Positions 6,392 through 24,145 of a stretch of DNA of 46,054 bases are shown piece after piece. Origin of the DNA: Escherichia phage vB_EcoS_SCS31. Location of the stretch: the sequence record ON081052; one strand, 5' to 3'. Numbering within the stretch: position 1 is the stretch's first letter; every line of letters begins with the position of its first letter. Under the pieces are notes generated by a model, which worked only from the letters and a program-made list of their open reading frames with translations, was not told the origin of the DNA and made no database searches. The translations under genes were made by a program, and so were the position numbers.

Positions 6392-6414
6392 AGCCCCCAC
6401 ATGGGGCTTTTTTA
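6392..6414 (+). terminator. rho-independent terminator
   Basis: Hairpin AGCCCCCACATGGGGCT + T-run. Confidence 0.6.
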
Positions 6415-6427
6415 TTGGAGAAATGCA

Positions 6428-7684
6428 ATGGTAAAAACAGACAGCTACGCCAATATCTTTCTAGGCGGTAGTGATGGTAGTGAGATTTACGGGAGCTTGC
6501 AGAACCAAGCCCCTACAATTCTGGCTTCGCTTTATGCGGATAATGCCCTGGTGCGTAGAATTATCGACACAATCCCGGAGACGGCATTGTCGGCAGGTTT
6601 TCACATAGACGGAATCGATGACGAGCCTGAATTCTGGTCTCGCTGGGACTATCTGGAGTTGACAAAGCATATCAATGAAGCCTGGTCGTGGGCCAGATTG
6701 TTCGGTGGAGCCGCAATTGTTGCTATCGTTAAGGATAATAGAGCGTTAACAAGCCCGGTCAGAGAAGGTGCTGAGCTTGAAACTGTTCGCGTTTACGACC
6801 GCACACAAGTAAAAGTACAAACTCGCGAGGAGAATCCACGAAACGCACGTTTTGGTAAGCCGCTAACCTATCGTATCACCACTAACGAGAGTGATATGTT
6901 CTATGACGTGCACTACAGCAGAATTCACATTATTGACGGAGAGCGAATTCCTAACGCAATGCGTCGGCAAAATGATGGCTGGGGCCGTAGCGTTCTATCC
7001 AGTGACATTCTTGACTCAATCAAGGATTACACCAACTGCGAACGACTCGCCACCCAACTGTTGAGACGAAAGCAGCAAGCAGTGTGGAAAGCCAAAGGTC
7101 TGGCTGAGCTATGTGATGATAGCGAAGGGTTTGGTGCAGCCCGTTTGAGACTTGCGCAGGTTGACAACAATAGCGGCGTTGGTCAGGCGATTGGTATTGA
7201 CGCTGAATCTGAAGAATACAGCGTTCTGAACTCTGATATTGGCGGCATTGATTCGTTCCTTGATAAGAAGTTTGATAGAATCGTTGCTCTGAGTGGAATC
7301 CATGAAATCATCCTTAAGAACAGGAACGTTGGCGGTGTATCATCCAGCCAGAACACGGCGCTTGAGACATTCCATAAGTTGATTGACCGTAAACGCAATG
7401 CTGAACTCCTGCCTATTCTTGGGTTTTTGATTCCTTTCATCGTAAACGCAGACGAATGGTCAGTTGAGTTTAATCCATTAGCTCAGGAATCAAGCAAGGA
7501 CAAAGCCGAGATCCTGGAGAAGAACGCAAACAGCATTGCGAAACTAATTACAGTGGGAGCTATGGATATCGACGAATCTAGAGATACATTGCGCGCAATC
7601 GCTCCAGAGGTTAAGATTAGTGATAATGATATTCAGACCGAGGAATCGGAGTTAATTACAGAGACGGAGGTTGTAATTGCGTAA
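6428..7684 (+). CDS. portal protein (putative)
   Basis: Approx 418-aa ORF after TerL; track start 6401 lies inside terminator hairpin, in-frame ATG 6428 has RBS GGAG. Confidence 0.7.
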   Translation: MVKTDSYANIFLGGSDGSEIYGSLQNQAPTILASLYADNALVRRIIDTIPETALSAGFHIDGIDDEPEFWSRWDYLELTKHINEAWSWARLFGGAAIVAIVKDNRALTSPVREGAELETVRVYDRTQVKVQTREENPRNARFGKPLTYRITTNESDMFYDVHYSRIHIIDGERIPNAMRRQNDGWGRSVLSSDILDSIKDYTNCERLATQLLRRKQQAVWKAKGLAELCDDSEGFGAARLRLAQVDNNSGVGQAIGIDAESEEYSVLNSDIGGIDSFLDKKFDRIVALSGIHEIILKNRNVGGVSSSQNTALETFHKLIDRKRNAELLPILGFLIPFIVNADEWSVEFNPLAQESSKDKAEILEKNANSIAKLITVGAMDIDESRDTLRAIAPEVKISDNDIQTEESELITETEVVIA

Positions 7685-7749
7685 ATTAACTGGTTTCGGT
7701 GAGGGGTAATGAAAAATGAATTTGATGGCTTTTAGTGAGGAGAATTGTG

Positions 7750-23600: not shown

Positions 23601-24111
23601 CCAGAAGCTTGATGCTTTCTCCAATGCCACGTCGACTGGTGTACAGTACGGAATTAGTCTTGGCCTGAAATACAATGGGCAGACTTATTCATCCGGTATG
23701 AGCATGGAGCTTGTTGGCACTGGTGGTAATGTTCGTAGTCAATTCATTTTTGACGCAAATAGATTCGCAATTAGTAATGGGATTGGTTCTGGTTCCGGTC
23801 AGTGGCAGCTCCCCTTCGTTGTCGAGAACGGAAACGTAATCATCCAGAGTGCAGTAATCGGTGATGGCTCAATCAGTAACGCGAAGATTGGAAACTTCAT
23901 TCAATCGAATAACTACGTAGCAGGAACTACAGGCTGGAGGATTGATAAATCAGGAAGTGCAGAGCTAAGTAATGCCACGGTAAGGGGTAATCTTTACGCT
24001 AACAATGGTAACTTCGCTTTTAATGGAACCAATAACACGGTTCAGATTAACGGGAATGGAATCACGGTAAACCTACAAAATGGTGGTCGTGTTGTTGTAG
24101 GAGTGTGCTAA
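20686..24111 (+). CDS. central tail fibre / host specificity protein (lambda J-like)
   Basis: 1141 aa; last large gene of tail module; start may be the internal ATG near 20725 (RBS GAGG). Confidence 0.8.
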   Translation: MAQMIKTNMRLCDMAEDIKIYGAKGGSQKQHQPVEQEDNLISLNKVKVLLAVADGEVDSNFSMKDLYLADVPVQNQDGSYNYEGVRAEFRAGTQYQDYIAGLDGANSEIQASREITNDTPYIIAVNNTQLSAIRVKLYWPRLVKQESNGDLNGTTCEYAIDLSVNGGAYQEYTSGVANGKTTTGYDRSIRVNLPAEFDSALVRIRKITPDSTSSTLVNGMQITTYQEVIDAKFRYPLTALVYVEFGSDLFPNGIPTISIKKRWKLIQVPTNYNPEARTYSGTWNGLFKMAWSNNPAWVLYDLVTNRRYGLDQRELGVEIDKWGLYEAAQFCDQMVPDGNGGMEPRYLCDMVVQNKVEAYTLIRDICSIFRGLTFYDGEKIGIVVDKPRNPSYIFTNDNVVNGLFSRTFASDKSLYTTANVQFDDVENNYQQDVEPVFELEATRRFGFNPVDLTAIGCTRRSEANRRGRWLLKTNLRSETISFTTGLEGMIPMIGEVIAVNDAAWSSNYQLNLSGRIESVQGLQVFTPFKVDAAPGDRILLNKPDGSPEARTIASVSEDGRTINLNTAFSFVAQPDTVFAIDKDNLALQQYVVTGIQKADSDGSDSFQYTITAVEYDPNKYDEIDYGVNIVDRPTSIVEPDRLSPPENLTVSSYSKVVQGLSVETMVIGWDKSPYAKTYNVQWRKENGNWINVPRTASTEVDIEGIYAGIYDVRVRSVSDTENVSSWSDIVTVSLTGKIGRPSAPTVITASTDEVFGIRVKWGFPEGSGDTAYTELQQVPDNGDGTYNPDNARLLTLLPYPAYEYWHTPIQPGKVIWYRARLIDRIGNTSDWSGFARGMSTDDANIINDYIKVDIEGSEGFKYLEQNAIQKNQDIQNQAESILENALANDTDVRRMTKENGKRKAEYVQAVNLIADETQARVEALTALKAQIDDEVVASITEVQTALATETEARTTADTALSARLGENEAALNQKLDAFSNATSTGVQYGISLGLKYNGQTYSSGMSMELVGTGGNVRSQFIFDANRFAISNGIGSGSGQWQLPFVVENGNVIIQSAVIGDGSISNAKIGNFIQSNNYVAGTTGWRIDKSGSAELSNATVRGNLYANNGNFAFNGTNNTVQINGNGITVNLQNGGRVVVGVC

Positions 24112-24115
24112 TAAA

Positions 24116-24145
24116 TAAAGCCCCTGAATAGGGGCTTTTCTTTTA
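24116..24145. terminator. bidirectional terminator between convergent genes
   Basis: AAAGCCCCTGAATAGGGGCTTTTCTTTT. Confidence 0.6.

Follow-up and report, generated by a model that had tools for sequence, protein, structure and literature searches.

That the late genes of T1-like phages are partitioned by transcription terminators is an already known family trait, annotated in phage T1 since 2004, and the resulting late-region units have been called "transcriptons" (Roberts et al. 2004, as summarised in PMC11447400). We have followed this trait in Escherichia phage vB_EcoS_SCS31 (record ON081052), whose 46,054-nucleotide stretch, referred to below as the window, carries a series of compact hairpins with T-runs between the structural genes at positions 6392-24145. 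It is probable, in our judgment, that these hairpins act as terminators that divide the late region into partly overlapping short transcription units, with one arrangement (class A) that would insulate and restart transcription and another (class B) that would attenuate it.

The closest described system is T1 itself. The T1 record (NC_005833) has rho-independent terminators annotated at all nine orthologous junctions and one more before terS; the sites lie before terS, between terL and the portal gene, after gp49, the major head gene, gp46 and the major tail gene, between the chaperone and the tape measure protein (TMP) gene, and after the M-like, I-like and J-like genes. The AKS96 record is annotated likewise at 9/9 junctions and the Sushi record at 7/9, while 21 intergenic terminators have been reported for TLS and 18-21 for relatives. 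The terminators of the window stand at the same orthologous junctions as those of T1. The window differs in having an extra, lineage-specific terminator at 19294, which arrived with the gp45 insert, and in having one terminator, not two, between the decoration-like and capsid genes. Since terminators of this kind are a long-annotated hallmark of T1-like phages, the novelty of finding them here is low.

Several co-directional terminators inside structural gene clusters, giving nested transcripts that balance expression, are a feature shared with phages LUZ7 and T7. In LUZ7, ONT-cappable-seq showed that over 60% of terminators permit substantial read-through, producing stepwise nested transcripts that balance expression (PMC9163698), and the same logic is cited there for T7. 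There are two differences. Read-through was measured in LUZ7 and is inferred from sequence here, and LUZ7 and T7 use phage RNA polymerases for their late genes, whereas T1-like phages encode none and use the host RNA polymerase throughout infection. The late operon of phage lambda is transcribed from one late promoter by a Q-modified, terminator-resistant polymerase. The window resembles lambda in its long co-directional siphovirus head and tail block, whose tail genes (H, M, L, K, I, J) are homologous, but it differs in that promoters and conserved internal terminators are numerous and that we could find no homologue of Q or N. In f1/M13, several promoters feed a shared terminator just after the major coat gene, so that the most abundant protein is encoded on most transcripts. 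Several promoters and a terminator after the major coat gene are found here too; f1/M13 are nevertheless an unrelated phage type; they have one strong terminator where the window has ten, and RNA processing is important there.

A more recent comparison is offered by the promoter-coupled terminators of bacteria, in which the termination site lies within 35 bp of a start site, the -10 element follows just after the T-tract, and the DNA of the stem occupies the -35 position (Fletcher et al. 2026, bioRxiv 10.64898/2026.08.19.745784). Two terminators of the window, 3810 and 20652, are alike in having a -10 element 13-20 nt after the stem and in lying between tandem genes of related function. Three others (9398, 10456 and 13097) differ in that their promoters, 40-50 nt away, are adjacent and not overlapping. 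The likeness is one of predicted geometry.

Terminator hairpins and their conservation

The window aligns base for base with Escherichia phage vB_EcoS_ACG-M12 (NC_019404; Drexlerviridae, Braunvirinae, Guelphvirus), both being 46,054 bp long with zero indels, and because of this the ACG-M12 annotation transfers 1:1 to the window. The gene labels given in the first-pass annotation (moron, decoration-like, capsid, 81-aa gene, major tail, chaperone, M-, I- and J-like) all agree with it.

Terminators were defined strictly: the stem had to be perfectly paired over 5 bp or more, the loop had to have 3-7 nt, the folding free energy (dG) had to be -8 kcal/mol or lower, and at least 5 T in 8 were required. 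Under this definition the + strand between 6000 and 24200 holds 10 sites, against 0.56 +/- 0.68 expected and a maximum of 2 in 100 dinucleotide shuffles. All nine hairpins with T-runs that had been listed earlier were recovered by a consensus scan on the + strand, each within 2 nt of its reported position; a tenth site at 19294-19315, between gp45 and K and equally good, was absent from that list, and an eleventh at 3810-3827, ahead of terS, lies outside the 6392-24145 region. A looser scan for long hairpins returned 61 hits on the + strand, most of them meaningless, and the strict, compact definition was used instead.

The same strict scan was applied to 18 genomes of five lineages, the window and 17 relatives, with orthologues located by tblastn. 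The relatives are ACG-M12, SU57, JeanPiccard, Rtp, IME542 and ES (Braunvirinae); AKS96 and C119 (Rogunavirinae); T1 and pSf-2 (Tunavirinae); TLS, P-K7R, K50_evo15, FritzSarasin, egaa and slyngel (Tempevirinae and relatives); and Sushi (Webervirus). The predicted terminators of the window are as follows, the fractions giving the genomes with a terminator at that junction.

3810..3827, + strand: terminator before terS; 7 bp stem followed by TTTTTTT, dG -12.5; upstream of terS in 11/11 relatives whose fetched locus reaches that region
6392..6408, + strand: terminator between terL (gp63) and portal; portal ribosome-binding site (RBS) and ATG about 20 nt on; TGATAAACT abuts the 5' edge; 16/17 scorable genomes
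9398..9415, + strand: terminator after the decoration-like gene gp60, before the capsid gene; C(UUCG)G tetraloop; 18/18
10456..10471, + strand: terminator after the major capsid gene, before gp58; 18/18
10793..10810, + strand: terminator after gp58, before gp57; degenerate U-tract TTTATTGTA; gp57 RBS and ATG 19 nt on; 17/18
13097..13116, + strand: terminator between the major tail gene and the chaperone; hairpins too divergent to align; 18/18
14137..14154, + strand: terminator between the chaperone and tape measure genes; weak U-tract TTTTCTATTA; RBS and ATG 20 nt on; overlaps the chaperone stop codon; 18/18
18056..18072, + strand: terminator between the M-like and L-like genes; RBS and ATG 18 nt on; TAAACT abuts the 5' edge; 17/18
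19294..19315, + strand: terminator after gp45; K-like RBS and ATG 18 nt on; only in the three gp45-carrying genomes
20652..20668, + strand: terminator between the I-like and J-like genes; 18/18
24117..24138, both strands: bidirectional terminator at the end of the structural module, where the J-like (+) and gp41 (-) genes converge; terminator at most 450 nt after J in 12/18

All 10 strict sites are intergenic and on the sense strand, 2-48 nt 3' of a stop codon. The minimum-free-energy fold is the expected hairpin at 11/11 sites, with a dG of -9.7 to -14 kcal/mol (ViennaRNA); the stems are GC-rich and 6-9 bp long, the loops have 3-5 nt, and the U-tract is directly 3' of the stem. Six to seven consecutive T follow the last G-C pair at 8/10 in-range sites and at 3810, the tract at 24117 being TTTTCTTTT, and degenerate tracts are confined to the sites at 10793 and 14137. 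A C(UUCG)G tetraloop closes five of the ten in-range hairpins (9398, 10456, 10793, 13097 and 14137); this extra-stable loop is also seen at 29234, and GAAA loops at 19294 and 39142. The tails on the reverse complement are mostly weaker than those on the + strand, with 14137 as the exception. The z-scores of single hairpins are modest for sites with runs of C or G (-0.81 at 18056, for example), and the significance thus rests on the joint count of hairpin and U-tract and on conservation. Judged by sequence, the hairpins show all the features of intrinsic (Rho-independent) terminators.

At the junctions listed above the position is kept while the hairpin itself is replaced. Each junction has 8-13 distinct hairpin sequences across the panel, with a mean pairwise identity of 0.61-0.74, and this conservation of place with divergence of sequence indicates that position, hairpin and U-tract are what selection keeps. 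A compensatory pair was found at the chaperone/tape measure junction, where one stem position is CG in four and GC in four; it is the sole junction with formally countable covariation. The hairpins at the major tail junction gave no consensus structure with MAFFT and RNAalifold because they are not homologous in sequence. Terminators are also scarce elsewhere in the module: eight other junctions have one in no genome of the panel, the portal/protease junction has one in TLS only, and the 310 kb of aligned coding sequence contain only 16 strict hits. A second terminator just before the capsid gene is present in five T1-, TLS- and Tempevirinae-type genomes. The terminator orthologous to 24117 is annotated on both strands in AKS96 and SU57.

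A few individual hairpins deserve a comment. The M/L hairpin is canonical in the window (18056-18072, -12.3 kcal/mol), as in other relatives, and degenerate at 18056-18076 of ACG-M12 (AATCCCCTGACGGGTTT, local fold -5.8 kcal/mol). In Sushi, the terL/portal junction (2216-2260) has a strong hairpin, GTGGGCCTGACGGCCCAC, abutted by CATAAT and with its U-tract lost, so a hairpin persists there without terminator features. At 14137-14154 the minus-strand U-tract of the hairpin (ATTTTTTT) is better than its plus-strand counterpart (TTCTATTA), and there is no minus-strand gene nearby; the hairpin could serve to block antisense transcription.

Predicted promoters, leaders and the units they would define

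Two arrangements alternate along the region. At the class A sites (3810, 9398, 10456, 13097 and 20652) a promoter-like element comes after the terminator, then a leader, the RBS and the start codon, and a conserved -10 element follows each of them, the one after 13097 being the TATAGT of the repeat promoter at 13125-13168. At the class B sites the terminator is followed by the RBS; these are 6392 (portal), 10793 (gp57), 14137 (tape measure), 18056 (L-like) and 19294 (K-like). The two arrangements are not fixed to their junctions in the family, since the lineages differ in having a promoter or an RBS at M/L and at the junction of the major capsid protein (MCP) gene and gp58. The predicted promoter elements at class A sites, and one inside the tail-terminator gene, are these:

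3845..3853, + strand: extended -10 of the terS promoter (P_terS), TGGTATAAT; 17 nt after the 3810 stem, in promoter-coupled geometry
9439..9466, + strand: capsid promoter-like element (P_MCP); TTGCGT, 16-nt spacer, TATAAT
10506..10511, + strand: -10 of gp58 (DUF7444), TATAAT; preceded by the conserved ACGTCTGTAC
12288..12316, + strand: near-consensus sigma-70 promoter of the major tail gene, inside the tail-terminator gene; TTGGCA, 17-nt spacer, TG-extended TACAAT; about 125 nt upstream of the start codon
20682..20687, + strand: -10 of the J-like gene (P_J), TAGAAT; 13 nt after the 20652 stem, in promoter-coupled geometry

The -10 of P_terS was found in all five lineages, as TGnTAtAAT in T1, pSf-2, Rtp, ES, P-K7R and Sushi and as plain TATAAT in TLS, egaa and slyngel. 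The capsid element is conserved in ACG-M12, SU57, JeanPiccard and Rtp; an extended -10 was considered at this promoter and rejected, as the TG adjoins the hexamer and is not at -15/-14. The gp58 element is conserved in Braunvirinae and in AKS96 (Rogunavirinae). For P_J, nine genomes share the block TTTTTATTTAGTGTAGAATGGCACAAATG without a difference, and in T1-type lineages TATAAT or TACAAT stands at the same place. The J-like start annotated in ACG-M12 at 20695 is without a Shine-Dalgarno sequence; an alternative ATG at 20725 (GAGG at 20711-20714) agrees with the starts in AKS96 and SU57, with space before it for the conserved TAGAAT promoter and a roughly 30-nt leader. A -10 element just 3' of the T-tract, the mark of the promoter-coupled arrangement, is present at 3810 and 20652 and absent at 9398, 10456 and 13097, where the -10 begins 34-46 nt after the stem and the distance from termination to start is estimated at 40-50 nt.

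These conserved -10 elements after 9398, 10456, 13097 and 20652 (and 3810) go against the first-pass view of the region as one co-directional operon, and so do the promoter embedded upstream of the major tail gene and four repeat-associated promoters described further below.

The class B sites are of a different nature. The gap between hairpin and start codon is 17-20 nt, which leaves no space for a downstream promoter; RNA polymerase must therefore traverse the terminator or start inside the hairpin, and it is a logical consequence that the downstream genes are transcribed only in one of these two ways. The RBS context that had been described as conserved after several hairpins is partly so: TATTGGAGA is exact at three sites (6413, 18076 and 19320), and a related TATGGAGG occurs at two more.

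The capsid gene is laid out as a monocistronic unit, with the terminator at 9398, a promoter, the gene, and the terminator at 10456. For the major tail gene, the promoter appears to lie within the preceding reading frame. The nonamer TGGTAnAAT of this element is present in 16/17 relatives. In the codon alignment of the tail-terminator gene, only 3/128 third positions are invariant across all 17 genomes, and yet three consecutive synonymous sites inside TGGTAnAAT are fixed in 16/16 genomes; the residue encoded within it varies (T, K or R) only through the least constrained position of the -10. Sushi has no such motif, and an intergenic TATAAT takes its place. The comparison argues strongly for a promoter that is embedded in the tail-terminator gene and drives the major tail gene, which would thus be a short promoter-gene-terminator unit ending at 13097. 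The proposal that both abundant genes are bracketed by terminators accordingly fits the capsid gene (9398 and 10456) and fits the major tail gene only loosely, its nearest upstream terminator being five genes away. As the capsid and major tail genes have their own predicted promoters, dedicated promoter-gene-terminator units explain the high output of capsid and tail tube better than read-through gradients do by themselves.

Put together, the reading that we favor would work as follows. The hairpins, orthologous to the T1 terminators, would stop the host RNA polymerase in a Rho-independent manner, and the late region would consist of short units in series that overlap in part, corresponding to the transcriptons of T1. 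A class A terminator would insulate a unit from the preceding one and let its own promoter restart transcription at its own rate, giving the capsid gene a monocistronic unit and, with the embedded promoter, the major tail gene a short unit of its own. At class B sites, only polymerases that read through would reach the genes for portal and protease, connector, tape measure and tail tip, and these sites would be attenuators that lower the expression of low-copy components; the U-tract may double as the AU-rich leader of the next RBS. The hairpin at 24117 would be the bidirectional end of the module. The presence of the hairpins, their excess over chance, the conservation of their positions with turnover of their sequences, the conserved promoter elements, and the lack of promoter space at class B sites are direct observations; what we infer from them is that transcription does terminate there, what fraction reads through, and that this is linked to stoichiometry.

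If class B sites are attenuators, one might look for weaker terminators there. The U-tract at gp58/gp57 is degenerate in every lineage, with a tail score of 3.74 against 4.5-5.0 at other junctions. Terminators with a short gap have tails of 4.52 against 4.79 for those with a long gap, and slightly more stable stems, in samples that are not phylogenetically independent. The notion that class B is systematically weaker was hence dropped: the difference is marginal, and gp58/gp57 is the only junction that is consistently weak.

Several points weigh against the reading above. The tracts at 6392, 18056 and 19294 have the canonical 6 U and are not clearly leaky by sequence, and efficient termination at class B sites would starve the portal and tail-tip genes. 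The protease/scaffold and decoration-like proteins, which are needed in many copies, are encoded downstream of a class B terminator, a poor fit to stoichiometry. The promoters are predictions, most of them with weak -35 elements. A -10-like hexamer abuts several class B hairpins, where re-initiation rather than read-through is possible. Finally, a literature search found no published map of RNA 3' or 5' ends for any T1-like phage. The earlier suggestion of graded read-through is partly supported and best kept in a reduced form: passage or an internal start is forced at the five class B sites, while the abundant proteins appear to rely on promoters of their own.

Re-initiation, RNA stability and antitermination as possible alternatives

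The alternative that survives best takes up the abutting hexamers. If a -10 element abuts the 5' arm of a class B hairpin, transcription would start about 7 nt downstream of it, inside the stem; the transcript would then be without the 5' arm, the terminator could not form, and the new transcripts would escape while polymerases from upstream are stopped. The best case is terL/portal, where 16/16 genomes have a -10-like hexamer (A2/T6) whose end lies 0-1 nt ahead of the hairpin, against a background of 5-6%. The hexamer is non-coding and has at least six variants, among them a perfect TATAAT in T1 and Tempevirinae as well as the form in the window; in Sushi, the hairpin and its abutting CATAAT are kept despite the loss of the U-tract. 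At M/L, an abutting TAAACT is present in all eight genomes without a downstream promoter, and the nine genomes with a -10-like element after the hairpin lack it, only two of them carrying another qualifying hexamer. TGTTAAACT abuts the hairpin at 19294, and the second pre-capsid terminator of five genomes is abutted by a -10-like hexamer that is TG-extended (TGCTATnAT-type) in four. In the window, TAAACT abuts the 5' base of four hairpins (6386-6391, 9392-9397, 18050-18055 and 19288-19293), or 4/16 of its + strand copies, and the copies at 6392 and 19294 are non-coding and preceded by TGn as in an extended -10. As a general motif, TAAACT was discarded: with 36 copies against 31.5 expected in the window it is not enriched, and only its position against the hairpins is unusual.

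These observations are countered by the weakness of TAAACT as a -10 (4/6), with no -35 evident, by the absence of a convincing abutting -10 at 10793 and 14137, and by the A-tracts upstream of terminators and the TAA stop codons, which generate -10-like hexamers and inflate the counts at other junctions. We regard it as doubtful, though worth keeping in mind, that a -10 is fused to the 5' edge of the hairpin at 6392 at least, and probably also at 18056 and 19294, so that the same 40 nt would both stop and launch transcription. If true, such an insulator-restart module would be a space-free mirror image of the promoter-coupled terminators described in 2026, conserved across Drexlerviridae, and possibly a previously unrecognised class of T1-type late promoter; a -10 upstream of the hairpin differs from the arrangement that the promoter-coupled preprint describes.

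A second alternative is that the hairpins are RNA-stability elements, which would shield 3' ends from exonucleases or 5' ends from RNase E and set protein ratios through mRNA decay. The unusual stability of the C(UUCG)G tetraloop in half of the in-range hairpins would suit this role, as would the bracketing of the most abundant messages, those for MCP and the major tail protein (MTP), and the one hairpin retained in Sushi without a U-tract; any terminator hairpin also stabilises the 3' end that it creates. A pure stability element, however, would have no need of the U-tract that is kept at almost every junction in every lineage despite replacement of the stem. A stability role is complementary to termination and likely to be additional, not exclusive; as the explanation of the hairpins it seems unlikely to us.

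Slightly less likely still is antitermination, in which a phage factor would make the late host RNA polymerase ignore the terminators, and the hairpins would mainly keep the late genes silent early in infection. The early genes at 528-3763 are indeed co-directional with the late genes and separated from them by strong terminators, for example 3810. Some 35 small proteins of the phage are without known function, and small antiterminators without recognisable homology do exist, P23-45 gp39 being an example; time-dependent read-through is known in phage LUZ7 (PMC9163698). On the other hand, Pfam and PHROGs scans of the 45 hypothetical or unassigned proteins gave no Q, N or other antiterminator family, and the other proteins are without such an annotation. 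An Rfam search at gathering thresholds gave tRNA only, short nut- or qut-like sites not being detectable in this way. The sole regulator, gp29, is a Cro/CI-type helix-turn-helix (HTH) protein, and the conserved promoters that follow half of the terminators would be needless for a terminator-resistant polymerase. The requirement for antitermination raised in the first-pass annotation thus finds no support in these scans.

A last possibility, that the hairpins play no part in transcription and are GC-rich palindromes arisen by chance, palindromes bound by proteins, or joints left by recombination, is improbable in the extreme. In its favor, accessory and HNH endonuclease genes are preferentially inserted at terminator junctions, and palindromic terminators can double as transcription factor sites (bioRxiv 10.64898/2026.08.19.745784). 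Against it stand the excess of intergenic sites over expectation (10 against 0.56), the + strand U-tract at every site (degenerate at 10793 and 14137) with mostly weaker reverse-complement tails except at 14137, and the family-wide conservation of positions with divergent sequences, which leaves no common operator.

Repeat-associated promoters, inserts and the wider family

A further group of predicted promoters is marked by a TLS-type repeat of 19 nt, ATAGCAC-N3-TTG-N-TAAAA (ATAGCACnnnTTGnTAAAA), with 22 matches in the window against 2.3 expected; the sites include 1306, 2116, 5966, 13125, 17152, 18846, 36163, 39122 and, on the - strand, 44831. Exactly four lie in the structural region, upstream of the accessory genes gp63, gp52, the HNH gene gp48, and gp45. 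The distance from repeat start to -10 start is 38 nt in all four, and the -10 is mostly TATAGT:

5966..6009, + strand: gp63 repeat promoter; repeat ATAGCACGAATTGCTAAGC with -10 TATAGT at 6004-6009
13125..13168, + strand: gp52/chaperones repeat promoter; repeat with -10 TATAGT at 13163-13168
17152..17195, + strand: HNH gp48 repeat promoter; repeat with TGCTATAAT
18846..18889, + strand: gp45 repeat promoter; repeat-associated, upstream of an accessory gene

Such repeat elements were named "phage-specific promoters" in an ACG-M12 relative in a PLoS One paper. In structure this element is an inverted repeat (TAGCA-N5-TGCTA) with its centre near -41, and it has the look of a class II-type activator or operator site that a dimeric HTH protein would bind. 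The obvious candidate to act on it is gp29 (33144-33650, - strand), the only recognisable regulator. In T1 and some Tempevirinae the repeat stands in inverted orientation just upstream of the chaperone gene. The leaders after the repeat promoters (for example 13175-13195, 39735-39755 and 40825-40845) have a conserved CATCGAAACGAGA(TG) about 8-10 nt after the -10, which begins roughly at the expected transcription start, and often a small CATC/GATG hairpin just before the RBS.

Two of the genes behind these promoters, gp63 (6039-6347) and gp45 (18921-19274), are paralogues (phrog_14592, "virion structural protein"). Each has a repeat promoter upstream and the same cassette downstream, consisting of TAAACT, the hairpin, and TTTTTATTGGAGA. 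By this layout they are duplicated moron-type inserts in the structural module, and gp45 together with the terminator at 19294 is a predicted promoter-gene-terminator insert. More widely in the panel, nearly all insertions of accessory and HNH homing endonuclease genes are at or beside terminator-bearing junctions (16 loci), namely terL/portal, decoration-like/MCP, MCP/gp58, MTP/chaperone, TMP/M, M/L and L/K. For example, gp63 or an HNH gene is found at terL/portal, and L/K has gp45 or an HNH gene. An extra gene occurs between the decoration-like and capsid genes, the capsid gene of C119 is followed by an HNH gene, and gp52/rtp34 follows the major tail gene.

It is worth adding a word on the relation between the window and ACG-M12, than which no closer relative was found in the phage collection. 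The two differ by 3,058 substitutions, mostly at third codon positions; 1,785 codon differences are synonymous and 483 nonsynonymous, and the transition/transversion ratio is only 1.2. They form a mosaic in which identical blocks (e.g. 1-3543, 9313-10823 and 39650-46054) alternate with blocks diverged by 10-20%. A mosaic so diverged and yet free of indels is unusual among natural recombinants; ECH1 is also exactly 46,054 bp long.

The main lesson of the comparison is that phage structural genes in a long co-directional block should not be taken for a single operon. The comparative list given above marks the junctions that are under selection and the terminators that must be traversed. For phage engineering, the junctions that tolerate inserts may be of practical use as insertion sites for payloads, and the compact elements of these phages are a possible source of terminator and promoter parts. 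For the family itself, the late region of T1-like phages would be a conserved mosaic of terminators and promoters, which probably sets the protein ratios for assembly.

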